DNA of 64,000 nt from UHGV virus genome UHGV-0279745; one strand, given 5' to 3'. The position numbers were made by a program, and so were the translations under genes. Of this stretch, positions 6,872 to 25,094 are shown piece after piece (positions within the stretch are counted from its first letter, which is position 1; the number at the start of each line of letters is the position of its first letter). The notes beneath the pieces are model-generated. The model was not told the origin of the DNA and did no database searches. It was given only the letters and a program-made list of their open reading frames with translations. Source of the DNA: a virus.

Positions 6872-6955
6872 CTATTTCTAAGGTGTTTATACCTTATTTT
6901 GTATAAAGACGCTTAGAATGCGTTCTACGCACGATTTGACGGTTAAAATGAATAT

Positions 6956-6994
6956 ACCCTACTCCTTATCGGGAGTAGGGTAGTTTTTATTATT
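6956..6994. terminator. bidirectional terminator between convergent genes
   Basis: accctactcc-ttatcg-ggagtagggt followed by tttttattatt. Confidence 0.6.
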
Positions 6995-7469: not shown

Positions 7470-7530
7470 GTTTTCACCTTTTATAAAAAAGTTAAAAATA
7501 ATAATTTTACAGACGACCCTTACTGCCATC

Positions 7531-7560
7531 TGTCATAACTATTAAAACCACTTCTATAAT
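7531..7560 (+). promoter_or_regulatory. possible sigma70-like promoter (-10 TATAAT at 7555-7560)
   Basis: Perfect TATAAT hexamer ~47 nt upstream of the 7608 ATG; -35 is weak. Confidence 0.3.
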
Positions 7561-7607
7561 CCGAACAATACTATGCAATCCACCCTGCCACACACGAGGT
7601 AAAAACG

Positions 7608-8214: not shown

Positions 8215-8745
8215 ATGGCAGCTACTAACCAGATGATGTTGGTCGCGCTTTATAATGCTGCTAACACTGAGCTACCACATCAGATTACTGATAAAGAAGT
8301 GTCCTTTGGTCTCCCTACTGCGCTGGAAGGCGAAGGTAAGAATACCAAAGTTACCATGACTGCACTGCCGGGTTCTGAGAATTTCAAAGGCGCAATCGAA
8401 CTGAAATACGATCGTCTGGAGCCGGGTGTTGTAGGTCGTATTGAGCTAACTGACGATCTGTCTCGCTGGGTTCAAGAAAATGAACTGCGCGCTTGGTTAC
8501 AATATTACATCAACAAAGTAAAACCTGACGACGCTATCGCACCAGCTGACGTTGTGTACAACACCGAAGACCAGAAAGACGAACATGAAAACGTCACTCT
8601 GCGTACCGTGACGTGCACCGTTACTGAAAGAAACCTCCGTTATAAACCAGGTGTAATGGCAACTTTCGTAATTACGCCGAAAGTTGTTGATAATCGTATT
8701 GACCTGGCCACCACCAACGGCGAGCTGGACGGTTTTACGTCCTAA
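8215..8745 (+). CDS. hypothetical abundant protein (176 aa), paralogue of 7608-8144
   Basis: AAGGA RBS; NTKVTMTA and GELDGFT motifs. Confidence 0.75.
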   Translation: MAATNQMMLVALYNAANTELPHQITDKEVSFGLPTALEGEGKNTKVTMTALPGSENFKGAIELKYDRLEPGVVGRIELTDDLSRWVQENELRAWLQYYINKVKPDDAIAPADVVYNTEDQKDEHENVTLRTVTCTVTERNLRYKPGVMATFVITPKVVDNRIDLATTNGELDGFTS

Positions 8746-8759
8746 GAAAAAATAAAAAT

Positions 8760-8800
8760 ACCTACCTCCTATTACGGGAGGTAGGTATACTATTTTTTTT
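8760..8800. terminator. bidirectional terminator (A-rich upstream, T-run downstream)
   Basis: acctacctcc-loop-ggaggtaggt flanked by aaaaataaaaat and tattttttttc; separates convergent genes. Confidence 0.7.
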
Positions 8801-8809
8801 CGCTGTCGA

Positions 8810-9481
8810 TTACAGCCCTTGCTCTAACGCAAACGCTTTTATCGAATCGTAATCACGTGCTTCAGCCCAAGCCCTGACTTCTCTTTTCTGCTCAGACATT
8901 GCGTGGTGTAGTTTTTGATCGCGCTCAACGATTGCTGCCAGCAACGTCTTGCACTGTTCTAACGTAAACGGTTCGATACGGGTGTTGTTAGCCGTTAACC
9001 AATACGCTGGCGCAGTTTCTGACTGGATATAACGACTCAGTGCTACCTGTGACTTCTCATCTGCCTGGAAAGTGAAATCACCTACCTGAATCTCAGCATA
9101 GCGTGCATCCTGATAACGGAATTCCAAAGCGCTTAGAATTTTCTGAACATCGGTAAAGATGTACCGCACCGTGGAACGTAAACCTGTACGAATTTCTTCC
9201 AGGTCAATCCCCAACGTGTCGTTAACAAAGTCTTTCGCTTTCTGTAGCGTAAACCGTGCTTCGATTTCAGACATGTCGTAGTTACGCATTTGTTCCAATG
9301 CTTCGCGATCAGACATCCCATCAATCAACTTATAGTGCAGTAACGCACAAAACCCTGTACGGCCGTGATCTTCGCTACCGATTTTCTCCATGTAGTTACC
9401 ATGACGATCAATCGGTAAATCGTGCGCAAAATAACGGCGACGGATTTCTTCTTTCGTTAAGCCTTCACCAGTAGCAGACAT
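8810..9481 (-). CDS. hypothetical protein (223 aa), last gene of rSAM/Cys-peptide operon
   Basis: AAGGAGA RBS; 25-nt overlap with upstream gene. Confidence 0.7.
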   Translation of the reverse strand: MSATGEGLTKEEIRRRYFAHDLPIDRHGNYMEKIGSEDHGRTGFCALLHYKLIDGMSDREALEQMRNYDMSEIEARFTLQKAKDFVNDTLGIDLEEIRTGLRSTVRYIFTDVQKILSALEFRYQDARYAEIQVGDFTFQADEKSQVALSRYIQSETAPAYWLTANNTRIEPFTLEQCKTLLAAIVERDQKLHHAMSEQKREVRAWAEARDYDSIKAFALEQGL

Positions 9482-10029
9482 TCATCGTCTCCTTTAATCA
9501 ACCCTAATTCGATTAACAGTTCAAAATCGATATGACGGAATCTTGTGTCGAAGTCCGATTCCCAATCGATACGGATACCCTGGCATTCTTCTGGCGTTAG
9601 CTCAGGAAAAATCACGCTATTAAATTTCTCCCGCTCATCGTAAAACCCATCAATCGGTGAGTTCGGGTTACGTGTTGCGAAGATAGTAATGCCGGGGAAG
9701 GACAATGCCAACACAGTGATAGATTCTGCGCTGGGTTCGCTTAAAGAGCGGCGTAGAAACGCAATTTTGTGACGTGGGAAATCCAATACCCGTTCTTCAA
9801 ACCCTGGGTTACGTTTTTCAATTTCCGCGACCGACAGGTCAGTAAGTTCGGTGCAGTACATTGGGATGATTACAGTCACACCGTGACGAATCAGCAAGCG
9901 TTTTACGTCATCGGTGAAATCTTCACCGTTAATCACCACATAACAACCAAATAGCTTACTGTTTTCCAGAAACTTATCCAGAAGTCGAATTCTACGCTTC
10001 GTAATATTGTTGATCAGAATTGGTTTCAT
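9457..10029 (-). CDS. hypothetical protein (190 aa) in rSAM/Cys-peptide operon
   Basis: ORF overlapping both neighbours (translational coupling). Confidence 0.65.
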   Translation of the reverse strand: MKPILINNITKRRIRLLDKFLENSKLFGCYVVINGEDFTDDVKRLLIRHGVTVIIPMYCTELTDLSVAEIEKRNPGFEERVLDFPRHKIAFLRRSLSEPSAESITVLALSFPGITIFATRNPNSPIDGFYDEREKFNSVIFPELTPEECQGIRIDWESDFDTRFRHIDFELLIELGLIKGDDECLLLVKA

Positions 10030-11314
10030 CTTTGGCTTCTCTTAATAATTTTTCCTTTTGGGCACGTTCACGAACACAGCGTGGGCAATAACACATGCTC
10101 GTGTCGTGGAACGCTTTTGCTGACGTCGTACCCATCTTCTGTTTCCAGTATTCCGCCACCATCAGTTTCGCTGTCGTCCAGCCACACTGACGTCGTTCAG
10201 CGTGATACGCTTTACGGTCTTCTAACGTTCCTTCCCCGTTCTCGTAAGAAGCCGCCGCGCAGCTACCACAAGCGTGTTTCATCGGACAACCTAAACAGGT
10301 CTCTGGGTAGTTGGTATATTGCGTTTGAATCTCTTCTAACAATTTACCGTTGTCCAGACTGACGAATTCCCGACCTACCAACTCAAACACCGCAGAACGC
10401 GACGTTACCGTTGACATAAAGCGGTTACAGCCAAAGATCTTACGGTCAAATCCTAAGCACGTCATGTGCGTTAACGTCCCACAGAACGGACGTAAGCGTT
10501 CTGGGTTCAGCCGTACGGTGTCATTATACAGTAACTGGTCACGCCAGTTCGGTTCCCAAATCGTATCGAAATCCAACCCTTCTGGAATGATGTGCGATAA
10601 GATATTACGTGGGTTGGTGTGTAATCCTTTCTCAACCCAGTAATCTATCACATCCATCATCTGTAAAGCGATTGACGTCGCCATGCTACGTGGCATAACG
10701 TCTTCGAAAGTTACGTTTCCAGAAATTGTCCCACCGCCAGTAATGTCAATTAATGACTTCATCCCCGCAGCATAGAACGGCAGCGTTTCTAACGTAAAGG
10801 TTGCTTTTACGCCGAGCTCTGCAATGCCAACCTCTTTTAAGTAGTTATAGCCACGTACTGCGGCTTCGTAAGAACCCTGGCGTGTTGTTGTGAATATACG
10901 ATAACGGTCATGGGATTCAGGTAAGCCGTCAATCGAAACCCCAACCGAAAGTTTGTCTTTCCAACGTTCTACAATCTCACGGTTCAACGGACGATCTAAC
11001 AGCGTTCCGTTCGTGGAGATACTAAACATAAACGGTCGGTTGTGTTCTTTACACAACTGCTCAGCGGTTTCAAACGCAGCCAGCAGCAGTTTAGGTTGCA
11101 TGAACGGTTCACCACCGATAATGTCAATAATAACTTCAACATTCGGTTCGTTTTTATCACGTTCAAAACAGGCGTGTAAGAAATCAACAATATCTGCCGC
11201 TTTGTTGTTACGCGGGTACTTACGTTCGTAACAATACTCGCAGTCCAGGTTACACGAAAGGTTGGTTACGATCTGATACGTTAACTGCTTAGGGAATTCA
11301 TTTACTTGACTCAT
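9992..11314 (-). CDS. radical SAM enzyme with C-terminal SPASM/twitch-like Cys cluster (440 aa)
   Basis: CNLDCEYC (CxxxCxxC) near N-terminus, GGEP motif, C-terminal CLGCPMKHACGSC plus further Cys pairs; GAGGGG RBS. Confidence 0.8.
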   Translation of the reverse strand: MSQVNEFPKQLTYQIVTNLSCNLDCEYCYERKYPRNNKAADIVDFLHACFERDKNEPNVEVIIDIIGGEPFMQPKLLLAAFETAEQLCKEHNRPFMFSISTNGTLLDRPLNREIVERWKDKLSVGVSIDGLPESHDRYRIFTTTRQGSYEAAVRGYNYLKEVGIAELGVKATFTLETLPFYAAGMKSLIDITGGGTISGNVTFEDVMPRSMATSIALQMMDVIDYWVEKGLHTNPRNILSHIIPEGLDFDTIWEPNWRDQLLYNDTVRLNPERLRPFCGTLTHMTCLGFDRKIFGCNRFMSTVTSRSAVFELVGREFVSLDNGKLLEEIQTQYTNYPETCLGCPMKHACGSCAAASYENGEGTLEDRKAYHAERRQCGWTTAKLMVAEYWKQKMGTTSAKAFHDTSMCYCPRCVRERAQKEKLLREAKDETNSDQQYYEA

Positions 11315-12221
11315 TTGCCGCCCCTCTATTACGCCCTGCCATCACCACACGACGAATATATTCGTACGCCTCTACACCGATAGAGAAGGCCAGTTGGTTA
11401 CATCCCGATTCCAGAACGTTAGGTGCATTCTGGAGTTGGTGCTCACCACCGTCTGCATTAATCCAAAGACTTTCGCTGCAAACGTTACACCCTTCTTCAA
11501 ACACTTTACTTACTGTAAAGCCGCATTCACGACTATTTACTACATTCAGTCGTTCAATGTTATCCTGAACCTGATAGTAGCCGTAAATAAAGTTCATGAC
11601 GTGGTCGGGCGATAAAGGTTTTGGCATTTTCGCATCTAAGAGTAACGTCATTGCACGGAAACCGTAATGGTAAATCGCGCTGTGCAGCTGAATAATATCT
11701 TCGTGCCAGCGTTTGTCCCCTAAACGGTCCCGTGTCAGGACACCCCAAGTCTGGACATTATCCAGCTCGTAGATCGTTTCCAGTGCTTCGTAACAGCCTT
11801 CGTCAATAAAGCGCATAAACGGGCGCTCAGACGACTTAAACCCATCGATGCTAACGTAGACATTGTCAAACTGTTTTAGCAACGGGAGATGCGATTTACG
11901 CATCTTTAAGCCATTGGTATACAACTGGTGTTTGAGTTCTGGACGAATCACTTTTAATTCGTCAACAAACGCCTCAATTTTACGGGTTGCCAGTAATGGC
12001 TCACCACCCGTCCACTGAATTTCGGTAATGGTTGGATTAGCTTCCAACGCTTCCAAAATTCGTTCACGTTGAAACTCTCGCGGAGAATCTTCACGATTCA
12101 TGTAATAGGCTCCACCGCAGAAGCTACAATCCAGGTTGCACTTGGACGTAGCGACTACGGACAATACGGTGGGTTTATCGTATAAACGATTCGATAACCT
12201 TGGTTCTGCATTGGTTGTCAT
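11298..12221 (-). CDS. radical SAM enzyme (307 aa)
   Basis: CNLDCSFC (CxxxCxxC), GGEPLL motif, additional C-terminal Cys residues; overlaps downstream gene. Confidence 0.8.
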   Translation of the reverse strand: MTTNAEPRLSNRLYDKPTVLSVVATSKCNLDCSFCGGAYYMNREDSPREFQRERILEALEANPTITEIQWTGGEPLLATRKIEAFVDELKVIRPELKHQLYTNGLKMRKSHLPLLKQFDNVYVSIDGFKSSERPFMRFIDEGCYEALETIYELDNVQTWGVLTRDRLGDKRWHEDIIQLHSAIYHYGFRAMTLLLDAKMPKPLSPDHVMNFIYGYYQVQDNIERLNVVNSRECGFTVSKVFEEGCNVCSESLWINADGGEHQLQNAPNVLESGCNQLAFSIGVEAYEYIRRVVMAGRNRGAANESSK

Positions 12222-12242
12222 TGCAGGTGACTCCGGTCGTTT

Positions 12243-13130
12243 TTAAATATAATCAATGGCGAACAAAGGATCGTCGTCTACGTTAGCACCAGGGGTTAAC
12301 AAGAATGGAGAGTTATACGCTTCCAAAATACGGTTAAGGTCTTTATAACGGACATTTAAACGTTCTAAATCCGCTAACGTTACGTTACGGTCCAACACCG
12401 CCGACACTGCTGCTTTCTCTTCGTCAGTTAACGTGACTTTCGTCATTAAGAAACTAACGAGTTTTGCCAGATCCGCTTCTGTTGACGGATGCTCGCCAAT
12501 ACGCGTTTGAATCAAATGCTGCATCCAAGGCTTACGGATGCGTTTTGTGATTTCGTGTTCATCCGTCAGGGCAACCCACACGGAACGTTCACGATCCCAC
12601 ACGAACTTATAGCTATACGCCATTAAATCCGCTAAGCAATTAATCCCTAACGCTTCGTACCCTTCAATTTCGATATACGATTCCGTATCGAAATAGTTCT
12701 TCGTTTCTGGTGTTACCAGGGTAAAGAAATACGGGAACGAACCTAAGTAATCCGGCGACCACCAACGACGGGCAACCGGTTTTGCGCCCATTTCTTCAAA
12801 TGGGGTAAAGAACAATTCCATATCTACGGAGTTATTCAAAATCCCGTCACTAAAGAAATATTTACCCGCAACCAGTTTACCACGCAACTCGGAGTCACCG
12901 GTAAAGACCACTACACTTTCTGCCGTCAGATCACGAATCTTAAACGTATTTTCTACACGATAGTTTTTACGATCGGTGAAGAAACGTCCGCGCACTTTAG
13001 GCCATTCGCCCGGCAACTGAGTCAACAGACGAACTTCATCTGCTAAGTGTGCACGTACGGAATCAGGGGAAGAAATGTGAAGTGGATGATTGAAAATTGT
13101 TTTGTACGCTAAATGTAAATCATTCTTCAT
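12243..13130 (-). CDS. hypothetical protein (295 aa) in rSAM/Cys-peptide operon
   Basis: ATG at 13130 preceded by GGAG RBS. Confidence 0.65.
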   Translation of the reverse strand: MKNDLHLAYKTIFNHPLHISSPDSVRAHLADEVRLLTQLPGEWPKVRGRFFTDRKNYRVENTFKIRDLTAESVVVFTGDSELRGKLVAGKYFFSDGILNNSVDMELFFTPFEEMGAKPVARRWWSPDYLGSFPYFFTLVTPETKNYFDTESYIEIEGYEALGINCLADLMAYSYKFVWDRERSVWVALTDEHEITKRIRKPWMQHLIQTRIGEHPSTEADLAKLVSFLMTKVTLTDEEKAAVSAVLDRNVTLADLERLNVRYKDLNRILEAYNSPFLLTPGANVDDDPLFAIDYI

Positions 13131-13279
13131 TGATTGCTCCAATTATTTCACGGTCAAACGGACATTCAGGGTATAGAAACCACCGCACCGTTGCCTACCG
13201 ATAACTTGAAACTCAGTAGTAAACCCGTACAATTAACTCAGTTATTGCGTAATAGACATACTACCACTGGAGGGCTTAG

Positions 13280-13486
13280 TTACCTTCCCCCCGCACCTTT
13301 ACTACAGCTACCACTGCACGACCAGCTACATCCGCCGTTACAGTTATAATGGCTTAAAGGTAAACCGGCAAGGTTATTGGTTGAAGACACAGTGCCCTGG
13401 TTTGCAATATAGTTGTTTGCGTTAGCGGTCGTAATATACCCTTCCGCTGTTACTAACCGATCACGAAGGTTCTTAAGGCTAATCAC
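13280..13486 (-). CDS. Cys-rich precursor-like peptide P3 (short, ~68 aa)
   Basis: GTG start after GGGAGG RBS that overlaps P2 stop; leader ISLKNLRDRL, junction HYNCNGGCSWSCSGSCS. Confidence 0.5.
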   Translation of the reverse strand: MISLKNLRDRLVTAEGYITTANANNYIANQGTVSSTNNLAGLPLSHYNCNGGCSWSCSGSCSKGAGGR

Positions 13487-13488
13487 AA

Positions 13489-13740
13489 TTACCTCCCAGA
13501 ACACCCACCAGAACAACTACCTGAGCAGCCTGCAGAACAGTTTCCTACACACGAGTTAGAACAACTCCCCGTACAGCTTCCTGAACAGCCACCAGAACAG
13601 GTATTCGAACATCCACTACAGCCTGCACTACAACCTGATACACAGTTTGCAGAACAGGAAGAACCACAGCCGCCTGATGCGTTCCCTGTACAACCACCAG
13701 AACAGCTCGAACAGGTCCAGCTACAGCTCCCACCACAGTC
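13489..13740 (-). repeat. low-complexity Cys-codon repeat region (P2 core)
   Basis: Reiterated CSGx / CxGx codon units visible in sequence. Confidence 0.6.
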
Positions 13741-13887
13741 ATAGTGGTTGCGAGCTTGCCCACCGAATAAGTCTGCGTTGTTCGTCGCTTTCCCACGAAT
13801 ATAGTTTTGTACTGCACCCGTATTCTTCAATGCAGTGTTGTCAATGTTATTTAGCCGCGCTTGTAGCGCAGGTAATCCAATTGCCAT
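13489..13887 (-). CDS. Cys/Ser/Gly-rich precursor-like peptide P2 (132 aa)
   Basis: AAGAGGTG RBS overlapping P1 stop; ~50-aa leader then ~80-aa core with Cys at about every fourth residue (about 20 Cys). Confidence 0.7.
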   Translation of the reverse strand: MAIGLPALQARLNNIDNTALKNTGAVQNYIRGKATNNADLFGGQARNHYDCGGSCSWTCSSCSGGCTGNASGGCGSSCSANCVSGCSAGCSGCSNTCSGGCSGSCTGSCSNSCVGNCSAGCSGSCSGGCSGR

Positions 13888-13897
13888 TTTTCACCTC

Positions 13898-14150
13898 TTA
13901 GGTTGGGCCAGAACAGCCACCAGAGCAAGCACCAGAACAACCCGTAGAACAACGGCCCGAGCAAGCACCCCCACAGGTCCCACTGCAACCTGAGCAGCCA
14001 CCGGAACACGTTGAACTACATCCAGTACACTGGTTACCGCACGCAGAGGAGCAGCTACCTACACACACTGACGTACAGGTGCCCGAACAACTCGTACAGC
14101 CATGCGTACAACCGTTTGAGCACGTCCAGCTGCAACTCCCCCCGCAGTCT
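13898..14150 (-). repeat. low-complexity Cys-codon repeat region (P1 core)
   Basis: Reiterated CSGx units. Confidence 0.6.
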
Positions 14151-14296
14151 AACCGACTTGGCGTCCAACCCGAAAAAGTGTCGGCGGCATTATGTGCTTT
14201 CGACGCAACTTGCGGATCAACACGTGGGCCAGTTGCCATTTGGTTCTCTACGTTGGTGATTCGGTCACGTACATTTTTAACACTGATCGCCATCAC
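13898..14296 (-). CDS. Cys/Ser/Gly-rich precursor-like peptide P1 (132 aa)
   Basis: AAGGA RBS; leader MAISVKNVRDRI, junction RLDCGGSCSWTCS, CxxxC-repeat core. Confidence 0.7.
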   Translation of the reverse strand: MMAISVKNVRDRITNVENQMATGPRVDPQVASKAHNAADTFSGWTPSRLDCGGSCSWTCSNGCTHGCTSCSGTCTSVCVGSCSSACGNQCTGCSSTCSGGCSGCSGTCGGACSGRCSTGCSGACSGGCSGPT

Positions 14297-14360
14297 GTAT
14301 CCTTAAAATAAAAAAGAATGGAGGACTACGCCCATAAGCATAGTTCCTCCTGTAATAAAG

Positions 14361-15560
14361 TTATTTCGTACCCGCTTCTGCCTGAACGTCATCACGGGAC
14401 GTCAAGTTAGCGTTAACGTGTACTGAAGCCTGAACCACACCACCGTATTTCTTGTGGAGATAGCCTGTGTGTGGGTTATCTGCCGCAATATGGTTTTGCA
14501 GGTTCTGATTCGCCTGACTGATCGCGTTCGTGTTATTCGCGACCTGTTGTTTAAGCGCATCCAAGTTTTGTTGCAGATTATCAATTTTCTGATCGGACTC
14601 ATTACCCCGCTGTTCTAACGCAGCAATGCGCTGAATCGCTTGATTGAGTTTGGTGCTCAGATCGTTGATATTTTTCTGTAACTGTAACACTAGCGAATTT
14701 AGGTTCGCCAATGCCAATGCCATTTTCTGGTAGTTTTGTGCAACGATGTTAAGTTGGTCGTTCCACGCTTCCAAAGATTTGACAACAGCATCAATACGTT
14801 TTCCTAACGCTTCATCCGCTTTCTTCAACGCATTAATATCAGTAATGGTTGCATCGATGGCAGACTGTACGTCACGGATAAGTGCACGGATCTCCGTTTC
14901 TGTTAACCCGTTAACCTGGTGAATATCCAGATGGTGGACGTTACCCGTGGCGTTAATGTGCGCGTTCAGCGCGTCCAGGAAATCGTTTTTCAGGCTTTCG
15001 AGAATCGCTTTGATGTTCTCAAGCTGTACAGCATCGCCCGCCGTTATCGCATCTTTAATGCCAGCGAGCACTGTAATGATATATTCGAAGCCGTAAATAT
15101 CGCCGACGTCTTTATACGTCGGTGCCGACGGAAATGTATCAGGAACATTTCGCAAGTCTTTAAAGCCAACAGTTCGATTATCGAGATTCAACTCAGCAAT
15201 CGCCTGTTCTATCGCAGTCACGTTTGCCGACTGCGGACCCCCGACTACTTGCGCCGATACCGTGATATCGGTCGGAATCGCGGTGTTCGTTACAACAACC
15301 GCCATTACCACTTCCCGGTTCTTCGTCAATTTCTCGTAAGCCGGGTGTGCAAAAATCAACTCATAGTCCGTTCCGCGCTCATACGTCGCATCGGGGCGGT
15401 TAGCAACCCGCAAGCGGAACGTATCAGCATAAAACGGACCGTCAGGAAAAGCAAACGCACGGTTAACTTTACCTGTGCCTAACGTAACCTGACGCTCCAC
15501 GGCGTTAGAGGTTAGGGTTCCCGTTAAATCTAAAGGGTATTGGTATACAATGGAGGCCAT
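14361..15560 (-). CDS. tail fibre protein (399 aa) with C-terminal coiled coil
   Basis: ATG with AAGGAGA RBS; N-terminal PDGPFY...GTDYEL domain shared with the three large fibres; heptad-rich C-terminus. Confidence 0.75.
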   Translation of the reverse strand: MASIVYQYPLDLTGTLTSNAVERQVTLGTGKVNRAFAFPDGPFYADTFRLRVANRPDATYERGTDYELIFAHPAYEKLTKNREVVMAVVVTNTAIPTDITVSAQVVGGPQSANVTAIEQAIAELNLDNRTVGFKDLRNVPDTFPSAPTYKDVGDIYGFEYIITVLAGIKDAITAGDAVQLENIKAILESLKNDFLDALNAHINATGNVHHLDIHQVNGLTETEIRALIRDVQSAIDATITDINALKKADEALGKRIDAVVKSLEAWNDQLNIVAQNYQKMALALANLNSLVLQLQKNINDLSTKLNQAIQRIAALEQRGNESDQKIDNLQQNLDALKQQVANNTNAISQANQNLQNHIAADNPHTGYLHKKYGGVVQASVHVNANLTSRDDVQAEAGTK

Positions 15561-15600
15561 GGCCACTCTCCTTAATCCGAGACGTCCTTGTCTCGTGGCG

Positions 15601-18600
15601 TTAAGATGTAAACATAAGATTGAACTGGAGCTTATCGATATCGCGGGTTTGTGCTGGGTTAACCGCATCGTACGTGGTTGCCACGTAGACCGTTAATGTC
15701 CCGTCAGCAAACGAAGTTTTCACCGGTGGCGTAGTCCCTGTCTGTCCATCAGTTACAATGACGACAGGTTGAGCCGGGAGTTGATGGAACTGACCCTTAA
15801 CCGCTTTATACACCAAACCAGATTGCGCTGATAACTCCGTGTCGGTATAGACGATAAACGGCGTGTCGATATCTGTCTGTTTAATGACAGTGTTCGTCTC
15901 AACGTCAATCAGCTGAACAGCACCGAACTTCGTACGGTAGCTATCGTATTCATTTTTTGGAATGACAAACGTAGCATGTACACGGACTTCTTCGGCGGGC
16001 TTAAATCCGGCGTGTTCTTTTTCCAGATAGCTGTTAGCAGTTAACGTTACTGTCTGTTCAGTCATCGTACCACCAGACTGGTTTAACCCGTAACGAACTT
16101 GGGTTATACCTGTCGGAGCCGCAAGCCTGATTTTTAGTCTACGGTTAGCGGTGCCGGGATTACCAGGCACTCTAACACGCAGGCTCAAAGCCAGATATGC
16201 ATTCGTACCGGTAGTCGGTTTCGTATACGCACCCAACCACTTCATATTCGCGGTTGCCGCTTGACTGTTCTCAGAAGCAGTAGCCGCTACAACGTTTGCA
16301 GCGACCGCTTTCTGCCAGAACTGGTCAGCGCAGTTCTCATACGCTACTCTACCGATACTTTTATAACCTGCATAGGTTTCCTGTATCGGCAGATTGGGGC
16401 GTGTTGTGATCCCGCTCAACGCATTCCATCTCTGACCATCGACATACCCCGCACCATTGCTCGCGGATGCCGTGGGGGCTTTCAGCGGTTGGTTAACCAA
16501 GGTTTGGAGTGGACCCGTTTTTCGATCGTACGCCGCTGCAACGTCGTGCTGATCTCTAACAGCAGCGTGTTCTTCTAATTCACGAACCCTGCCTAACCGT
16601 TTCACTTTATCGATGTTAATAGCAACTATGCGCTTTTTATCGGTTGTAACTGTACCAACAAATAATCGCGAAGTCGTATCCGGCAGCTTTTCCAGCCCGA
16701 TCCGATATTGAGCTTTCGAACCTACAAGAGCAGCATGAACATAGAACGTCTGGTTAGCATGGTTTTCTGGGAATTCGTTGCTTAAATCCACCGACCACGT
16801 CGGTAATGTATAGCTATTACTACCGAAATCTAACCTGACCTCTTCCGTCAAGTATAGAATCCAACCTTCCGCAGTCTCCACGCCTGCAATAATAACCGCC
16901 TGCCCCGCTGTTGAGAATGTGGTATCATTAACGAACTCTTCGACTGTATATGCGTTACCTGAACAGAAAACGCGGTCAGCTTTAGAGAAAATTCGTGCCA
17001 TCTTGTCCCAATTACCCGCACCCATGTAACAACCAGATTCTGGGTTGTGGGCAGGAGCCATCTGACGCAACTGTGACTTACCGGGAACGCGAGTCCAACC
17101 CGACCCAGGGTTAAAGGTATACTTCGCAGCGTAACCCAAAGCATTTAGGTCCCCGATATTCCGTATTGTCAGCGTATAAGGCAACCATAGACCGAAGTTT
17201 ACACCGTCGGCAGAAGCAAAAATTGGCTGGCCTACACGTCGCGTTTTATTGCCCGCTTCTTCCCTCAGAGACTGATAACTTAAGCCGTAATCAAGGTCTA
17301 AGAACCAATCAACGAGTTTGAAAGTAGCCGAGTTAAAACGTAGATAACCGTTTTCTTTGGTCGGACTTACCATGAAGTAATAGATGTCGAGAACTCGACG
17401 TCCGTTACTCAGGGTTTTCATACATGAGACTTGTAATAAGTCGAACTCACAAACAGTGTTAATGCCTAGCAACCAGAGCGCAAACAACGCGTTGCCGCTT
17501 TGGTGTGCTGCACTGATGCGTTCGTTCGCGTAACCGTTTGCTTGACCAGATGGTGCACCGTCGACAATCATCCTAATCATCTTCTGGCGATCCGCTTCCT
17601 CTAACGTCAGCCGTTCTGATGACAGGGCAAAGTTACCGTAGATGTTTCGATATGGGAAGGTTTCCGCTTTCGTCAAATACCAACCGTTTAATTGCCCGTG
17701 ACGCTCCTCAGGAGTCATGCAAGCAGCCATACAGCTTAACTGTTCGTAAAGGGTTGCATCAACTTCTCGACGGTTGTTGTTCGGACCATAACCACTATAT
17801 CCGGGAACGTCATAAGGTTTACTTGGGTCAACTTCTACTTCGATCGTATAGCGGTTGCGCGGATTGGATAGCCAAACCTTATTCGAACCACCAATACCGA
17901 CAGGATGAGAAAGACCGATTGTATAGATAGAACCGCGACCTTTATCCCATGTAAATGTTGCTTCGCCTGAGGTATTGTTTGGGTTATCATAACGCAGATA
18001 ATCAAAAAACTCTTTGCCTTGCGTACTTTTAATAGTAACGTTCGGCATCTGGTCCGCATCGTTAATCTGCCAGCAGGAAAGCATCATTCCCGAGACATTA
18101 GGTTTAGCATACGTCGCAAAACAACGATTGTTTGCTTGGCCGCCACCCCACTTACGACTGGTTTCTACAGTTGAGCCATCCGCGAACGTCAGTGTGGTAG
18201 TATCAACCTTAATGGGGAAACGTTCGGCACCCTCTAACGTAACTCTGCCCGTTAACGTATCGATTGTGAAACTTGTTGACCATTGACGGAAATTAATCGT
18301 CGAACCGTCGGCAGCCGCAAACCACACGGTGGGTACATGGTTCACACGAATCACGCTGTCGCGCACCGCACAAGCATGGCTACATTCTGGACCGTGAACA
18401 AAACTGTGACCGATTGTCCATTTAGCCCGTGCCTCTGGCGGGTAATACGTAAAGAACTGACCAGTCTGCGACTCTTCGGTCTTCTGACCAATTCGTAAAC
18501 AGAGGTTATCTCCGAATTGCCCCATTTCTCCGGTTAGGGTTACACGTTCAAATTCTAACTCAGTATTGTTAGTCAAATCGGCTTTACGTAAACGCCATGC

Positions 18601-20784
18601 CGCCACGGCATAAGCAGAGTTATTTACCGTGGAACGAAGAAGATAAACGTGGTCGTCAACTAACACAACATCGTCGGCTTCTGGCCAAGGATTCCAGGTT
18701 TGTTCCACAGTACCGCTGGGGTTGCCATTACGGTACTTAGGCATTGTAACACGACACACCACCGTGTGTTTACTGTGGTCCATCGAACCATTGAACAACA
18801 CCAAATAACGGTTATTGTCAGAACCCAGACAAATAATCGCTTCCTGACCACCGATCAATATCGCTTTTAAGGTCACCCCAGGGTATTTACTCATCCCAAC
18901 AGGATGGTATTTCACCGAAGTTTGCTGAGGGTTCACAAACACATTCGACGTATTGATATCAGCATAGCCGTAGTAAATAGCCTCTGTACCAGGTACACCA
19001 TTAGAAGCATTACGTAACGAATAAACTTTACCTTGTTGGAATCCTACAACGCCTTTCTGATAGGACTGGTTCTTTGTAAAACCTGAATAATTACCGAGCG
19101 CCGGAATGGGTAAGAAGTTTTTGTTACCGAACTTCGCCCCACCGACAGTCCACGCAGGTAAGATGGTATTCAGTTTATCAGAAACTTTCTTGATCTCTTT
19201 TGCGAACAACCACCCTTGACGCGAAGTGGCAGCTTTATCGTTCGTGGTATCAATCGCATCCCACAACTGTAAGATACCATCCACAGTCGCACTGCCAATC
19301 GGGACATTATCCAAATCGGCGGTAGTGTGCGTGTGCTCCTTCACACTTTTATTTTTCAGCACATTCGCTAACGCTTTTGTTACCGGTTTAGCGATCGGCA
19401 TGGTGTTATCCATCTTATCGATACCGAAATCGGTTTTCGTTAAGGTTAACACCATTTTATCGCCCGTCTTAACAAACCCTTTACCGTTAACCGTATAGTC
19501 ATCGTCAACGTACAGGTCCAAGCGGTCTTTTAATTCGGTCACCGCCTTTTGGGAAATAGCAGTGCCTAGTGCTACGGATGTTGCGATATTCGTAATCGAA
19601 AACACCCCATAAACCGACTCGGTTGCTGTGGGAATATTCGCGTTCAACGTTAGCGGATTAGACTGCTTCGCCGTACCGTACGGTTTTACGCTGTCTGATG
19701 GTTTGAAATAGGCATTCGCTTCAAGTAACGTTACAGACGTCAGGTACATGTTCACCATTTCTGGTGTAACCAAATACACAGAGTTGTAAACCGGCGCTAA
19801 TACATCCTGCTCTGACCCAGAGTGTACCCAAAGCGTATTCAGTCCCGCACTAAATTCAACCGCTAAACCCGATTCGTTGTTGTCCTGGTCCGCTTTAATC
19901 ACTAACGGTTGCGGTGAGGTAATTAACCACTTATCACCACGGATACTGATAATGTGCCCGCCTGCGGTTTTAAACGTCAGTTCGTTACCGTTCGTGCTCC
20001 CCCATCGACCGTAAACAGTGCCGAGGGCTTCACCCATTAACTGATCAACGTCTGACTGCTCAATACCCGCCGAACCCATCAGCGTAGCCAACTCGTCAAT
20101 CGTCAGTCCAAACGCTTTTGTCGCGTCAACAGCACGTCCCAAAACCGGAAGGGCACCAACGTCAGTGGTCGTATACTGGTGTGCGTTAGGATTAAGGTGG
20201 TGTTGGTATAACTCCTCGTCGAAAACCTTTTTACCGTTCTCGTAAATCAGGTTAGTGACTTCGGTAAACGCTGCATCTAACTCTGTTGAACGTTGAACGA
20301 TTTTCTTACGGATGTCGTTTAACGCTTTAACAACCTCATCCCTCAGAATAGCTTCTTCTAAGTTAGCAGGAGGATCGATGGGTTGAATAACTGGCGCATA
20401 CGCCATTAACTCTGACCAGTCCACGTTACGTGGGTCTTTCAGGTCAGTACGAACTAAGAACTTTCCGATTTCAGATTGCGGTACACGATACTGGCGTGCT
20501 ACCCCTAAAATCTCATATTCGATTTCTGTTGCGGTCAGCAACATGAACCCGCCGTAGATCTGATCTTGCTCAGCTTCTGCGAGTTCTTTAAAGTAATAGC
20601 CTAAATAGTAGTCCAACCCCTCAATCAGAGTACGACGTCCGTTAGGCGCGGTATCGTCGGCTACTGTGAGTTTTAATCCGATACGATAAAAAGGTCCTTC
20701 AGGCGGAATGACCACATTAAATCGGTTAGGGTACGTCGCTGTGCTTAACGTACCGTTAAACTGCGCCGCGTCTTCTCTCGGCAT
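15601..20784 (-). CDS. long tail fibre protein (1727 aa)
   Basis: Shared N-terminal fibre domain (PEGPFY...GLDYYL); very large late gene; AGGAG RBS. Confidence 0.85.
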   Translation of the reverse strand: MPREDAAQFNGTLSTATYPNRFNVVIPPEGPFYRIGLKLTVADDTAPNGRRTLIEGLDYYLGYYFKELAEAEQDQIYGGFMLLTATEIEYEILGVARQYRVPQSEIGKFLVRTDLKDPRNVDWSELMAYAPVIQPIDPPANLEEAILRDEVVKALNDIRKKIVQRSTELDAAFTEVTNLIYENGKKVFDEELYQHHLNPNAHQYTTTDVGALPVLGRAVDATKAFGLTIDELATLMGSAGIEQSDVDQLMGEALGTVYGRWGSTNGNELTFKTAGGHIISIRGDKWLITSPQPLVIKADQDNNESGLAVEFSAGLNTLWVHSGSEQDVLAPVYNSVYLVTPEMVNMYLTSVTLLEANAYFKPSDSVKPYGTAKQSNPLTLNANIPTATESVYGVFSITNIATSVALGTAISQKAVTELKDRLDLYVDDDYTVNGKGFVKTGDKMVLTLTKTDFGIDKMDNTMPIAKPVTKALANVLKNKSVKEHTHTTADLDNVPIGSATVDGILQLWDAIDTTNDKAATSRQGWLFAKEIKKVSDKLNTILPAWTVGGAKFGNKNFLPIPALGNYSGFTKNQSYQKGVVGFQQGKVYSLRNASNGVPGTEAIYYGYADINTSNVFVNPQQTSVKYHPVGMSKYPGVTLKAILIGGQEAIICLGSDNNRYLVLFNGSMDHSKHTVVCRVTMPKYRNGNPSGTVEQTWNPWPEADDVVLVDDHVYLLRSTVNNSAYAVAAWRLRKADLTNNTELEFERVTLTGEMGQFGDNLCLRIGQKTEESQTGQFFTYYPPEARAKWTIGHSFVHGPECSHACAVRDSVIRVNHVPTVWFAAADGSTINFRQWSTSFTIDTLTGRVTLEGAERFPIKVDTTTLTFADGSTVETSRKWGGGQANNRCFATYAKPNVSGMMLSCWQINDADQMPNVTIKSTQGKEFFDYLRYDNPNNTSGEATFTWDKGRGSIYTIGLSHPVGIGGSNKVWLSNPRNRYTIEVEVDPSKPYDVPGYSGYGPNNNRREVDATLYEQLSCMAACMTPEERHGQLNGWYLTKAETFPYRNIYGNFALSSERLTLEEADRQKMIRMIVDGAPSGQANGYANERISAAHQSGNALFALWLLGINTVCEFDLLQVSCMKTLSNGRRVLDIYYFMVSPTKENGYLRFNSATFKLVDWFLDLDYGLSYQSLREEAGNKTRRVGQPIFASADGVNFGLWLPYTLTIRNIGDLNALGYAAKYTFNPGSGWTRVPGKSQLRQMAPAHNPESGCYMGAGNWDKMARIFSKADRVFCSGNAYTVEEFVNDTTFSTAGQAVIIAGVETAEGWILYLTEEVRLDFGSNSYTLPTWSVDLSNEFPENHANQTFYVHAALVGSKAQYRIGLEKLPDTTSRLFVGTVTTDKKRIVAINIDKVKRLGRVRELEEHAAVRDQHDVAAAYDRKTGPLQTLVNQPLKAPTASASNGAGYVDGQRWNALSGITTRPNLPIQETYAGYKSIGRVAYENCADQFWQKAVAANVVAATASENSQAATANMKWLGAYTKPTTGTNAYLALSLRVRVPGNPGTANRRLKIRLAAPTGITQVRYGLNQSGGTMTEQTVTLTANSYLEKEHAGFKPAEEVRVHATFVIPKNEYDSYRTKFGAVQLIDVETNTVIKQTDIDTPFIVYTDTELSAQSGLVYKAVKGQFHQLPAQPVVIVTDGQTGTTPPVKTSFADGTLTVYVATTYDAVNPAQTRDIDKLQFNLMFTS

Positions 20785-20794
20785 CGTAAAGACT

Positions 20795-20840
20795 CCTACT
20801 TTTAAATAAAATGGATACCCCTCCCCGTTACAGGGAGGGG
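20795..20840 (-). terminator. terminator between tail-fibre genes (minus-strand orientation)
   Basis: cccctccc-loop-gggagggg hairpin with U-rich tract on the minus-strand downstream side. Confidence 0.5.
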
Positions 20841-20878
20841 TTACCTACGGACACACAACTGCCCGCAGGCAGCCTGTC

Positions 20879-23800
20879 CTAAGTACGATCCCCTAACTGC
20901 TTCCCGTTAAGTTCTCGTTTCAGTACAGCCAAAATCCACTTCCACGCTTTACTCGTGATGTGGTACGGATTGCGTTTCTCCATTAAGAACTGACTTTCGC
21001 CGCTACGGAGTTCGAAGCTCTGCGCATTGAGTTGGTCTTGGCGAACACCTTTCTCGTCAGTGACATCTAACGAACAGGTAAAGTTAAGCTCGTAGCCTTC
21101 AGGATTATTACCCGGTGGTTCTAAGACAATATAAATGTCCTGCCCTACACGTAGGTCCTTTGGCGTAAGGGTAACTGCTTTACCTGTGTCCGCGCTGGTC
21201 GAAAGCGCAAACGGCACGCTATCGATAGCTGATACATACGCGTCCTTCCCAGCATCACCGATAATCACCTTACCCGGCCAGTTACACTTCACCGTTCCTG
21301 TCACTTTTGCAACACGGTACTGCTGTTTATCAGCACCTTGTGCAAAGCGTAAAATGAGTTTATGCCGATACCGGTTTGCGGCAGCTTTGGATGTACTCCA
21401 CTCATTGTTCCAGGATGCATGAAGTTCACCTTTCTTGGCCATCAAAGCACCACGAGACAGCTTACGTGGGAAGAATTGTGCCGGAAGTTGCCCTTCGTGG
21501 GAAATCGCTACACTCCCTTGTCCGGTTGGAAGTGCTATTGTTTCCGTAGGGCAATAATTTAACTCGTACACGTGTGTTGTAGGATCGATCAATTTCTGAT
21601 AGTAATCGCCGTCCTTACTGTCCGCTAACCAACCAACGGAAGAGTCCGTATACGATTCAAACAGTGAACGTAAATAGTGATACTTATCGATATCGATGTT
21701 ACCCGTTTTTGGATCGATCAGGGCATGGTTAATAGTGAGGAAACACTTCTCACTCAAACCATTAAACGCCAGCCCCACTCCGTCGCCGGTAAAATAGTCT
21801 ACCAGGTCAAATGGAAGCGTCATTTCTATTTGTCGCAAGTTGATAGTCGTTGAACCAAACTGCGAAAAAGATAGCGCTAAACGAAGTACACGAGTATTAA
21901 CATTATAACGATAACGAATCATCCCACGCGGCGCATGGTTCGCGGAGATCTTATCACCGTTTGGACCCCACCCAATTAAATCGAGTATTTCGGCGTTTGC
22001 TACTTCACCATTAAACAAAACGTCTTTAGTCGTGATTTCAACTGACGTTTCCCTTCCGGCATCCATCAACATCGAACCGTTATTCAACTCGAAGCTCTTG
22101 TGCCAAACTTCAGAAGTCGAACCAGCACCTACACCCACCTTACAAGTTTTACTAGTAAGGTTAATACGCACATAACGGCGTCCCACTGTACCACCCTGCG
22201 AGCTTGCGCACAAAATAAGATCAGGTGCCGCAGACAGTGCCTTGGTCCCTCCAATGTCATCAACATCGAAAACGAATGAGCCTTCGAACGTTGGTGCGTT
22301 ATTTTCCTTCGGGTTAAATGGCGTGAACCAACAATAAGGCGTCGCGCCCTCGGTTGAGAAAATCAACTCTAAGTCAGATTTAACATTTAATCCGTGGGAA
22401 TAAGAAAAGAGACCGCGACTTAAGGTACAAAGCGTTCCACCGCTTCCGCTACCTAAGGTTTTTCGATATATTAAAGCGCGGGGTTCAGCAATAGCACGGT
22501 TTAATAACGGCAACCGTGGGTTATCCGTTAACGTCCAGTCGACAGAACTGAGTCCGTGTGCTTTACGAGCGTCGATGTGCTCACTAACCTCGGTACTTTT
22601 CCCGAAATCAAACGTAGTTTCAAAACTCACGGTTTTATTCGAGTAAGATTCACCGGCAACAATATCAACGTAGCCGATATAACCGCGCTCAGGGTCAACT
22701 GCAATACTCTGAATTGGCTCAGTACGCGAATACAGAGAGCCTGTGAGCATGTTAACGTACAGATAATGACGAATGCCTACGTGTGTTGTAACGAACTCTT
22801 GGAGAAGCTCTACGTGCGTTTCAGGGCCACTGAAATAAACGGGGTAGTCACCGTCGTAAATTTCGAATTGCACCGCTGCGGATTTAGCCGTGTCGCTACA
22901 CTCAGCTTTAACCGCCACGGTGTAGTTTTCAACGTCTGCTGATGTTTCATACACTGCAACGAGCGGAGACTGGCCTGTGGCTGCCTGGATACCGTTAATG
23001 TAAACTGTAACCGGGCCACCCCCTGCGGCATAAACCCAAAGCTTCGGCTGGCGTGCTCTTACCCGCGTTTTGGCCAACACAGTAACAACTGACTGGTCAC
23101 CCATCTGTGAGGCAGTTTTACCTACCGGAACAGATTGGAAACCCATTAGTGGTGGTTCTTCAATACCTGTCCAGTTAATGCCCTTACCAGCACTCACTTT
23201 CCCCGTAGGCCAAGTCGTCTCAATTTGGTTGTTCGGTGAGAACCAGTTAAACATCGGCGTAGTTTGCAGGTCAATCGAACCTGTAACGGCGCTATCAGCT
23301 TTCGCACCGTTCAGCAAATAGAAATACTTCAAATCTTGAACGGAGATTGCCGTACCCTGACTATTAAAACGCCAGTCTGCACCTTTTACCGCAGCAAAAT
23401 CCGTTACCGACCCTTCTTTCGCGTTTGCAATCGCCGCAGCAACCACATCTAAACGCGCCGAAAGTTCTTTTAAGATGTTCGGTACCACTGCACGGTTTTC
23501 AACCAAACCGTTCTGGTTAGTTGCGTAACGACCGATACCGTAAACGGATTGCGAGGCTTTATAAATGCCTAGTTCCGACCAATCGTGATGGTGACCCGCA
23601 TCCGCTAAGCCGCTAAGCGCCGCATTTAACTCGGTAGACAACGGCTTGTCAACGTCTGCGGTGTTATCCGCTTGCCCTAACCCCAGATCAGCTTTCGTGA
23701 TTGTCCTGGAGCCGTCGTTCATCGGCTTACCGTTAATCATGGTCGTTTTAGCCACATACCCCGATAGGTCAGTCGAGTATGGTGCTAACGACGCCGGTGT

Positions 23801-25081: not shown

Positions 25082-25094
25082 CAAAAAATTCTCC

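Follow-up and report, generated by a model that had tools for sequence, protein, structure and literature searches.

Next to its tail-fibre genes, an SPN3US-like jumbo phage carries three small cysteine-repeat proteins and two radical-SAM enzymes, and the same set of genes sits beside, or fused to, tail fibres in many unrelated phages. It is therefore probable that this module cross-links fibre tips rather than making a secreted peptide. The window analysed is a stretch of 64,000 nucleotides from the virus genome UHGV-0279745, and the cluster found in it is conserved in all SPN3US-like jumbo phages. No description of such a module was found in the literature searched.

The features of the locus are as follows.
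14361..29417, minus strand: four upstream baseplate/fibre genes, ORFs of 435 aa (probably 399 aa from the internal ATG), 1727, 1401 and 1440 aa, orthologues of SPN3US gp167-170.
14305..14350, minus strand: a hairpin followed by a U-run (terminator- or attenuator-like) between the last fibre gene and P1.
13898..14293, minus strand: P1, 131 aa, with about 50 N-terminal residues (predicted helices plus the junction motif NAAD..G....L.C..SCSWTCS) and a 78-residue core with 21 Cys (mostly C-x3-C, consensus C-S-G-x) ending CSGGCSGPT.
13489..13887, minus strand: P2, a 132-aa paralogue with 20 Cys and the junction KATNNADLFGGQARNHYDCGGSCSWTCSS.
13280..13486, minus strand: P3, a 68-aa paralogue with only 4 Cys (CNGGCSWSCSGSCSKGAGGR), a minimal substrate.
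12243..13130, minus strand: a 295-aa accessory protein (phrog_8030), a core member of the module.
11298..12221, minus strand: a 307-aa radical-SAM enzyme with C28-x3-C32-x2-C35, GGEPLL and a C-terminal three-Cys (twitch-like) motif at C245/C248/C274.
9992..11314, minus strand: a 440-aa radical-SAM/SPASM enzyme with C21-x3-C25-x2-C28 and eight conserved C-terminal Cys (278, 286, 296, 340, 343, 349, 352, 377), without an N-terminal RRE extension.
9457..10029, minus strand: a 190-aa protein (phrog_7988), found only in SPN3US-like jumbo phages and so not part of the core module.
8810..9481, minus strand: a 223-aa DUF4376 protein (PF14301 at 42.8 bits; phrog_8169, with a weak match to a PHROG "tail protein" family), found only in SPN3US-like jumbo phages.
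8758..8788: a bidirectional intrinsic terminator that closes the operon.

The preliminary description had reported a tightly coupled eight-gene operon downstream of four tail-fibre genes, and this observation was confirmed: all eight ORFs exist on the minus strand. The radical-SAM motifs reported there are present, namely CNLDCSFC and GGEPLL in the 307-aa enzyme, and CNLDCEYC and GGEP, together with C340-x2-C343-x5-C349-x2-C352, in the 440-aa enzyme. The starts were corrected from the sequence. P1 begins with ATG at 14293 (SD AAGGA), P2 with ATG at 13887 (SD AGAGGTG), P3 with GTG at 13486 (SD GGGAGG) and the 295-aa protein with ATG at 13130; the mechanically predicted 78-aa ORF of P3, beginning with TTG, is too long. 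The gene overlaps are 17 nt (440/307), 38 nt (190/440) and 25 nt (223/190). However, the hairpin between the last fibre gene and P1 is strong (-21.4 kcal/mol, z = -4.9, with 0 of 200 shuffles folding as well), and the unit is therefore not simply appended to the fibre genes without punctuation.

The Cys frames are real coding frames, and the Cys of the three ORFs are mostly in C-x3-C spacing. In the comparison with SPN3US, the differences by codon position are 37/24/68 for P1, 27/31/76 for P2 and 10/4/40 for P3, and every Cys is conserved (21/21, 20/20 and 4/4). All three ORFs match phrog_6085 (P1 at E 1.6e-40, P3 at E 2.5e-24), which also matches the Cys-tailed proteins of distant loci. P2 scores 20.4 bits against TIGR04114, the "radical SAM target" Cys repeat of NCBIfam, with a cut-off of 20, while P1 scores 14.4 bits, below this cut-off. 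AF2 gave no usable model of P1 (pLDDT 40), whereas the model of the 295-aa accessory protein is confident but shows no known fold.

Assignment of both enzymes to non-peptide radical-SAM families had been set out in advance as grounds for rejecting the maturase reading, and profile searches did not give this outcome. Both enzymes are radical-SAM proteins, and the 440-aa enzyme belongs with SPASM peptide/protein maturases, not with QueE, NrdG, MoaA or PFL-activase types. Its family profile aligns with the thioether-forming maturase CteB (5WGG) at E 9e-38, profile positions 13-352 to CteB residues 104-432, over the core and SPASM domains, with anSME in second place. The best NCBIfam hits are PapB (116.8 bits, cut-off 340) and TIGR04115, the CXXX-repeat-target maturase (114.7 bits, cut-off 350), so that the enzyme lies far below both curated cut-offs, and the Pfam SPASM model was not reported at E<=0.1. 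Eight SPASM Cys are invariant or nearly so across 25 homologues. The 307-aa enzyme was assigned by PF04055 (53 bits) and by the invariant positions of an alignment; its profile matched SkfB, CteB, MoaA and YydG in the PDB over the core region only, and it is paired with the SPASM enzyme in every type-B locus.

In viral contigs, 75 of 82 related loci carry a same-strand CxxxC-repeat ORF within 3.5 kb or less, but among loci from bacterial genomes, in a scan that mostly retrieved unrelated SPASM enzymes, only 5 of 80 do. Relatives of the 440-aa enzyme follow tail-fibre genes in P2-like, lambda-like and T7-fibre-type prophages, and in two of these the Cys repeat is the C-terminus of a Pfam-verified tail fibre. 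In a Campylobacter P2-like prophage the order is baseplate J, P2_I, a fibre (PF12571 at 138.8 bits) ending in the Cys repeat, the accessory protein, two radical-SAM enzymes and the sheath. In a Deferribacter lambda-like prophage the module lies after GpJ. Locus L088 encodes a gpH-like fibre with a Cys tail, and locus L087 a T7-type fibre followed by an uncalled 76-aa Cys peptide. In type-A gut phages the module lies next to baseplate wedge and tail-fibre PHROGs. The accessory protein and the small radical-SAM enzyme are homologous across these loci. An exception is a related jumbo-phage locus, L019, where a 3-Cys candidate substrate lies next to a helicase-like gene rather than a fibre.

The segment of P1-P3 that looks like a leader is homologous to the shaft-tip junction inside full-length fibres; P2 aligns to residues 171-216 of 302 of the fibre of locus L003 (E 3e-10) and to residues 443-473 of 568 of the fibre of locus L017 (E 9e-10). 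In SPN3US, the mass spectrometry data show that gp167-170 are tail-associated virion proteins, present in virions and absent from tailless particles (Table S4), and gp168 is described as a baseplate/fiber protein. In contrast, SPN3US gp161-165, which include the enzymes and the accessory protein, are absent from the virion proteome, as expected for maturation factors.

The best explanation, which is held with moderate confidence, is a phage-encoded enzymatic maturation module for cysteine-repeat tail-fibre tip proteins. In this view, P1-P3 are small, split-off fibre-tip subunits, each with a short N-terminal helical or attachment segment, a conserved shaft-tip junction and a C-terminal CxxxC-repeat domain with no predicted fold on its own. 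The 295-aa protein would present them to the enzymes, taking the role that an RRE or a fibre chaperone would normally have. The 440-aa enzyme, using two auxiliary clusters, would repeatedly form Cys-derived cross-links along the repeat, most likely thioethers (about -2 Da each) to carbons of the intervening Ser, Thr or Gly residues, within or between chains, and the 307-aa twitch-like enzyme would add a second modification or a substrate-specific set of links. The product would be a covalently stapled, redox- and protease-insensitive distal tip on the gp167-170-type fibres. The analysis itself demonstrates the genes and motifs, the relationships of the enzyme families, the conservation of the module, its tail-fibre context and the fusion to fibres in other phages, while the pairing of enzymes and substrates, the chemistry, the role of the accessory protein and incorporation into the virion are inferences. 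There is no direct evidence that P1-P3 are expressed, modified or present in virions; they were not in the SPN3US search database. The chemistry was not identified, although PapB-type Cys-Asp links are excluded, as the P1 and P2 cores contain no Asp or Glu.

The interpretation given in the preliminary description, a RiPP-like system yielding either a cross-linked virion or fibre component or a secreted modified peptide released at lysis, was thus only partly supported. The comparative evidence favours the first option, and the secreted-peptide option is not supported as stated. The suggestion that such a cluster within a phage structural operon was novel is not supported as stated either, since the cluster is conserved in all SPN3US-like jumbo phages and its core recurs in many other phage tail modules.

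A true RiPP, in which the modified cores of leader-plus-core precursors are cleaved and released at lysis as a diffusible bioactive peptide (a bacteriocin, a signal, or an agent against competitors or defences), seems unlikely. Small precursor-like ORFs with conserved N-terminal halves and variable repetitive cores do lie next to SPASM maturases, and at least one bacterial locus with a related enzyme, L096, has three 59-70-aa Cys peptides that look like classical precursors. However, no protease, transporter, immunity gene or RRE is present in the operon, the leader is homologous to the interior of fibres, the same repeat is the C-terminus of 271-568-aa fibres elsewhere, and the module occupies the fibre-chaperone position in a P2-like prophage.

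It is about as doubtful that the Cys repeat is a metal- or Fe-S-binding (metallothionein-like) fibre domain, with the radical-SAM proteins and the accessory protein loading or remodelling metal centres, or performing a different modification, rather than making thioethers. The Cys density is extreme and the filler residues are small, and phage tails are known to bind metals or clusters, such as the Fe-S cluster in lambda gpL-type tail-tip proteins and the iron ions in the T4 gp37 tip, although this was not tested here. But the large enzyme is specifically related to the cross-link-forming maturases CteB, PapB, QhpD and SCIFF, no metallochaperone-like domain was detected, and minimal substrates have only 3-4 Cys. 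Equally improbable is a transient C-terminal registration clamp that nucleates trimerisation of the fibres, analogous to intramolecular or trans chaperones, and is not retained in the mature virion. The repeat always sits at the extreme C-terminus, the module occupies the slot of the fibre-assembly chaperone, and fibre folding starts at the C-terminus. However, no protease or autocleavage domain was found, the separate P1-P3 proteins would have to act in trans, and the investment in up to about 246 repeat residues and two Fe-S enzymes seems large for a discarded part. A coincidental adjacency, with the enzymes acting on a nucleotide, cofactor or host target (an auxiliary metabolic or host-takeover function) and the Cys ORFs being unrelated structural proteins, is very unlikely, because, although the 307-aa enzyme has weak core-only similarity to MoaA, QueE, NrdG and viperin, the enzyme and the Cys-repeat ORF co-occur in those 75 of 82 loci across very different phages with conserved order, and the best full-length matches are peptide maturases.

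Among known systems, the TIGR04115/TIGR04114 pair was defined bioinformatically, and no characterised product was found. As in the window, a SPASM-type radical-SAM enzyme lies next to a protein with tandem C-x-x-x repeats; the 440-aa enzyme aligns to TIGR04115 over positions 3-345 of 359, and bona fide TIGR04115 members from viral contigs (446-475 bits) also lie in baseplate and tail-fibre modules. By its score, however, the window enzyme belongs to a sister family, and the window type has a second small radical-SAM enzyme and a 250-300-aa accessory protein, while the TIGR04115-type loci have one radical-SAM enzyme and a 97-107-aa protein.

CteB (SCIFF/ranthipeptide maturase, PDB 5WGG/5WHY), the best solved-structure match, and PapB (freyrasin maturase) share the radical-SAM-plus-SPASM architecture, and PapB makes one thioether per CXXXD/E unit in a repeat substrate, -2 Da each (PMC10739248). 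The N-terminal RRE region of CteB is absent from the window enzyme, the Asp or Glu acceptors are lacking in the P1 and P2 cores, and the substrates are, or are homologous to, parts of tail fibres rather than small secreted peptides. QhpD/QhpC, a SPASM radical-SAM enzyme that cross-links the small gamma subunit of quinohemoprotein amine dehydrogenase, is the precedent for a maturase installing Cys thioethers in a subunit of a protein complex rather than in a natural product. TIGR03906 is among the hits (61 bits for the window enzyme, 89-115 bits for relatives), but the sequences are far below the family cut-off, and the substrate, acceptor residues and biological context all differ. The His-Xaa-Ser system has a matching four-part architecture of a repeat peptide (HxsA), a large SPASM-type radical-SAM enzyme (HxsB), a smaller partner radical-SAM enzyme (HxsC) and a protein of unknown function (HxsD). 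The 440-aa enzyme hits HxsB at 75 bits and the 307-aa enzyme hits HxsC at 38.9 bits, both far below the cut-offs (370 and 268), and in the window the repeats are Cys-based, not His-x-Ser, and the context is a phage tail. Finally, the module shares with the phage tail-fibre assembly chaperones (P2 gpG/Tfa type; Pam3 fibre chaperone) the genomic position directly after the fibre gene and products that are non-structural in SPN3US.

The cluster occupies the minus strand from 14293 to 8810 and carries eight ORFs, for which the likely starts were fixed by reading the sequence; the eight-gene arrangement claimed in the preliminary description is thus present. The features of the cluster and its borders are the following.

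About 14350-14305, minus strand: a strong hairpin followed by a U-run, between the last fibre gene and P1 (-21.4 kcal/mol, z = -4.9)
14293, minus strand: ATG start of P1, after AAGGA; 131 aa
13887, minus strand: ATG start of P2, after AGAGGTG; 132 aa
13486, minus strand: GTG start of P3, after GGGAGG; 68 aa, in place of the mechanical 78-aa TTG ORF
13130, minus strand: ATG start of the unknown (accessory) protein; 295 aa
Downstream, minus strand, ending at 8810: a 307-aa radical-SAM protein, a 440-aa radical-SAM protein and ORFs of 190 and 223 aa
8758-8788: a bidirectional terminator of 12-13 bp

The last four junctions of the cluster overlap by 17-38 nt. The hairpin upstream of P1 is a terminator- or attenuator-like element that was missed by the simple terminator scan, and the unit is therefore punctuated at its 5′ end. 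No internal terminator was found in the 137-nt spacer between P3 and the accessory gene, where the predicted fold is no better than that of shuffled sequences (z = -0.25). The neighbouring 435-aa ORF (14361-15668, minus strand) probably starts at the internal ATG giving MASIVYQYPLD (about 399 aa), as in SPN3US gp167, which removes its apparent overlap with the end of the 1727-aa gene. On the other side, two tandem paralogous DUF7941 proteins of 178 and 176 aa (7608-8144 and 8215-8745, plus strand) converge on the shared terminator. By synteny they correspond to SPN3US gp160, an abundant 18.5-kDa virion protein still present in tailless particles, and Erwinia phage pEa_SNUABM_29 has three similarly sized ORFs at this position.

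P1, P2 and P3 contain 21, 20 and 4 Cys, respectively. The Cys start at residue 49-51 and are spaced almost always by three residues and occasionally by two, with the consensus unit C-S-G-x and no acidic residues in the cores. Since the GC-rich repeats give ORFs in several frames, the frame was tested against SPN3US. Differences by codon position amounted to 37/24/68 for P1, 27/31/76 for P2 and 10/4/40 for P3, and all 45 Cys are conserved. The Cys ORFs are real genes, and all three proteins match a single PHROG, phrog_6085. The comparison with the NCBIfam Cys-rich repeat described as a radical SAM target (TIGR04114, cut-off 20 bits) was divided, with P2 passing at 20.4 bits and P1 and P3 failing at 14.4 and 12.4 bits, which leaves the membership of the three proteins as a set undecided. 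An AF2 model of P1 based on a shallow alignment had a pLDDT of 40 and showed no structure in the Cys region, and was uninformative.

Public annotation largely misses these genes, as seen in the reference records of loci L001 (NC_027402, 12167-13196), L085 (JN641803) and L002 (MW812339, 10030-11052). In SPN3US, P1 and P3 are unannotated, and gp166/gp100 is a wrong-frame call over P2. The annotated CDS of the small radical-SAM protein (rSAM2, gp164) is 264 aa long, whereas the ORF extends further upstream and aligns with the window enzyme from its N-terminus, including the CNLDCSFC motif. In pEa_SNUABM_29, opposite-strand ORFs are called over P1 and P2. A protein search with P1 returned only 10 hits among 5.8 billion clusters, which reflects un-called ORFs rather than rarity, while the search with the 440-aa enzyme returned at least 194.

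The region is about 72% identical in DNA to SPN3US and its relatives. The 440-aa enzyme is 58-83% identical across about 60 jumbo phages of Salmonella, Escherichia, Erwinia, Cronobacter and Proteus, and the N-terminus of P1 is conserved down to about 46%. The four upstream same-strand genes correspond to SPN3US gp167-170, which in the published virion proteome are abundant in virions and absent from tailless particles; gp168 is described as a baseplate/fiber protein (PMC5105663). The products of gp161-165, the orthologues of the 223-aa, 190-aa, two radical-SAM and 295-aa proteins, were not detected in virions, which fits non-structural maturation factors. That proteome does not address P1-P3, which were not in its search database. 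Table S1 of the same paper lists no phiKZ homologue for the gp163-164 rows shown, whereas gp167 has one (ORF134).

Both enzymes belong to the radical SAM superfamily, scoring 53 bits (307 aa) and 57 bits (440 aa) against the Pfam cut-off of 29.5 (PF04055), and the Cys of the CxxxCxxC motif are invariant in the alignments of both families. Profile searches had been named beforehand as a test of whether these are peptide maturases. The best NCBIfam hits of the 440-aa enzyme are PapB (NF047865; 116.8 bits, cut-off 340) and TIGR04115, the radical SAM peptide maturase of the CXXX-repeat target family (114.7 bits, cut-off 350, aligned over 3-345 of 359), followed by a long list of peptide maturases, including geopeptide, HxsB, QhpD, SCIFF and anSME. 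The enzyme is related to these families, but is not a member of any by the curated thresholds. An alignment of 25 homologues (27-85% identity) keeps C21, C25 and C28 and eight C-terminal Cys (278, 286, 296, 340, 343, 349, 352 and 377), as expected of SPASM-domain enzymes, where a C-terminal motif of 7-8 Cys (C..C..GxxxxC, then Cx2Cx5Cx3C, then C) binds two auxiliary [4Fe-4S] clusters. The spacing here is Cx2Cx5Cx2C, Pfam's SPASM model was not reported at E<=0.1, and cluster binding was not assayed, but a profile of the alignment matches CteB (5WGG) at E 9e-38 over the radical-SAM core and the SPASM domain (CteB residues 104-432), followed by anSME at E 7e-17. The enzyme is classed with the SPASM-domain radical-SAM enzymes, and lacks the N-terminal region that precedes residue 104 in CteB. 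The family of the 307-aa enzyme keeps C28, C32 and C35 and only three C-terminal Cys (245, 274, and 248 or its neighbour), and its profile matches SkfB, CteB, MoaA and YydG in the core region only.

Homologues of the 440-aa enzyme with 31-40% identity over about 90% of its length occur outside jumbo phages, always beside tail genes. In a P2-like prophage of Campylobacter pinnipediorum, the order is baseplate J, P2_I, a 384-aa fibre, a 250-aa protein, a 400-aa radical-SAM protein, a 284-aa radical-SAM protein, DUF1353 and sheath, and the fibre carries PF12571 at 138.8 bits and ends with GCNGCSGSCSGSCSSGCTACSGCSGSCSGKSDGCGCRHS. The DUF1353 gene that directly follows the two radical-SAM genes in this prophage (L004, 10068-10433) has a counterpart in the window (5704-6378, plus strand; 54.6 bits), about 2.5 kb from the cluster on the other strand, which may be a recurrent neighbour or a coincidence. 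In a lambda-like prophage of Deferribacter abyssi, GpJ is followed by a 302-aa protein whose last ~100 residues are CxxxC repeats, and then by a 250-aa protein and two radical-SAM proteins. In a further locus, L088, a 271-aa gpH-like fibre (PF12571 at 24.2 bits, cut-off 23) ends in the repeat and is followed by a 257-aa protein and two radical-SAM proteins. In locus L087, from a bacterial assembly (GCA_964490815), a T7-type fibre (PF03906) is followed by a 76-aa CxxxC peptide (6021-6251), a 291-aa protein, a small radical-SAM protein (7123-8004) and the SPASM enzyme. Both the peptide and the small radical-SAM gene are uncalled there, and a 180-aa opposite-strand gene is called over the latter instead. 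The 250-291-aa proteins are homologous to the 295-aa protein of the window (E 3e-10 pairwise, and by jackhmmer), and the small radical-SAM proteins are homologous to the 307-aa enzyme over their full length. The core module therefore consists of four parts, a Cys-repeat fibre end or peptide, an accessory protein, a small radical-SAM protein and a SPASM radical-SAM protein, whereas the 190-aa and DUF4376 (223-aa) proteins occur only in the SPN3US-like clade.

A scan of IMG/VR with the family alignment gave 79 loci. Together with the prophage loci, 75 of 82 carry a same-strand ORF with 26-246 residues of CxxxC repeat within 3.5 kb or less of the enzyme, and most exceptions were filter or flank artefacts. 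Adjacency to a CXXX-repeat protein, the genomic feature expected of TIGR04115 enzymes, is found both in the window, where P1-P3 lie in the same operon, and in these related loci. Many of the enzymes, at 24-26% identity to that of the window, are bona fide TIGR04115 members (446-475 bits), here called type A. They have one radical-SAM protein and a 97-107-aa protein, lie next to Baseplate_J/Tail_P2_I, baseplate-wedge and tail-fibre families, and their Cys proteins hit the same phrog_6085. A scan of genome contigs mostly retrieved unrelated SPASM enzymes through radical-SAM core patterns and served only as a negative control; only 5 of 80 of those loci have such an ORF. The association is therefore specific to this enzyme lineage. 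Other viral loci with related radical-SAM proteins (L081, 4493-5712; L074, 4953-5378; L083, 5738-6448) carry different Cys-repeat flavours next to the enzyme, such as CNARCSCNCNYACTCNCDYACTC and CQCNCDNCDCDCDRCSCNCDRC, which suggests further substrate classes. One locus cautions against an exclusive tail association. L019, from a 279-kb jumbo-phage contig, has the accessory protein and both radical-SAM proteins, but the only candidate substrate is a 97-aa ORF (6883-7176) ending with RGCESCAMGCHGPQ (3 Cys), and the upstream gene is helicase-like, not a fibre.

The segment before the repeat in P2, KATNNADLFGGQARNHYDCGGSCSWTCSS, aligns with residues 171-216 of the 302-aa Deferribacter protein (E 3e-10) and with residues 443-473 of a 568-aa Cys-tailed protein from another jumbo-phage contig (E 9e-10). 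So the apparent leader corresponds to a shaft-tip junction inside longer fibres, and P1-P3 look like split-off fibre tips. P1-P3 themselves have no fibre Pfam domain, and with no virion data on them their standing as tail-fibre proteins is left undecided, although homologous Cys-repeat domains are fused to PF12571 fibres.

Gene content, motifs, family relationships, conserved linkage and tail context are shown, while the mechanism proposed from them is inferred. The action of the SPASM enzyme on the adjacent Cys repeats is inferred from the linkage, from the homology to CteB and PapB, and from NCBIfam's own definition of TIGR04115 as the maturase of CXXX-repeat targets. The links would be Cys-derived thioethers, by analogy with PapB, where each link costs 2 Da (PMC10739248), and with CteB, QhpD and sactisynthases; whether the sulfur is joined to an alpha-carbon, as in sactipeptides, or to another carbon, as in ranthipeptides, was not measured. 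Cys-Asp links of the PapB type, a family whose substrates are expected to carry CX3D/E acceptor motifs, were rejected for this window, since there is no Asp or Glu in the P1 or P2 cores, and the acceptors would have to be Ser, Thr, Gly, Ala or Asn, or Cys itself, within a chain or between chains of a trimer. In this view, the accessory protein presents the substrate, the small enzyme adds a second or substrate-specific modification, and the product sits at the distal end of the fibres. A 93%-identical relative of the window phage (L016, 4576-5487) carries an extra 303-aa small radical-SAM paralogue between P1 and P2, giving three radical-SAM genes in that cluster, which hints at substrate-specific pairing.

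None of the rival explanations is excluded experimentally. The Cys repeat might be a metal-binding domain or a transient assembly clamp. A diffusible RiPP is disfavoured by the comparative data, and the RiPP-like reading of the preliminary description was only partly supported. A RiPP cluster would be expected to have a leader recognised by an RRE or by the enzyme and removed by a cluster protease, with export of the product. No protease, transporter or RRE was detected in the operon by Pfam, NCBIfam or PHROGs, or by a fold search of the accessory protein, although the absence of detectable homology is not proof of absence, and the leader is homologous to the interior of fibres. A more classical bacterial RiPP arrangement seems to be present in a Ruminococcaceae contig (L096, 12110-12882), where a related full-length SPASM enzyme is accompanied, about 3 kb downstream, by three tandem 59-70-aa peptides with CxxxC/CxxxD-type cores (for example, CSGTCSGDCEGACGGTCAGTCSGDC...SK). 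Coincidental adjacency is likewise disfavoured by the comparative data.

A broader, tentative reading is that many phages finish their receptor-binding fibres with an enzymatically stapled cysteine-repeat tip, the staples being installed by phage-encoded radical-SAM/SPASM enzymes. These phages would include jumbo phages of Salmonella, Escherichia and Erwinia, prophages of the P2, lambda and T7-fibre types, and a large set of contigs from metagenomes. On this reading, the long-orphan CXXX-repeat RiPP families (TIGR04114/04115 and the present two-enzyme sister family) are virion-protein maturation systems, which would be a new class of post-translational modification of viral structural proteins, and in the jumbo phages P1, P2 and P3 may form a heterotrimeric tip. 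If correct, a bioinformatically defined but uncharacterised radical-SAM/substrate family would gain a concrete biological role, and so would the putative radical SAM genes of SPN3US-like phages. Radical-SAM cross-linking would join the short list of covalent modifications of virion proteins and would affect fibre stability, host range and the engineering of receptor-binding proteins, since fibres of this type would need their maturases to be functional when swapped. An annotation blind spot would also be exposed: the substrate ORFs are unannotated, mis-framed or called on the wrong strand in reference genomes, so that proteomics has not been able to see them. The system would offer an iterative cross-linking enzyme pair with natural substrates ranging from 3 to more than 60 Cys, and the predicted modification is directly testable in a genetically tractable phage, SPN3US.

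The enzyme-substrate pairing belongs to a kind that NCBIfam already models (TIGR04114/04115/04117), and the radical SAM genes of SPN3US-like phages have long been annotated as such. Full-text literature searches, limited to open-access papers and preprints, found no description of this cluster or of radical-SAM-modified tail fibres, and no recognition of the Cys-repeat ORFs in these phages, of the variant with two enzymes and an accessory protein, or of the link between this system and phage tail fibres. In comparison with the His-Xaa-Ser system, the 440-aa and 307-aa enzymes score 75.3 and 38.9 bits against HxsB and HxsC, far from the cut-offs of 370 and 267.9 bits, and the repeats are based on Cys rather than on His-Xaa-Ser.
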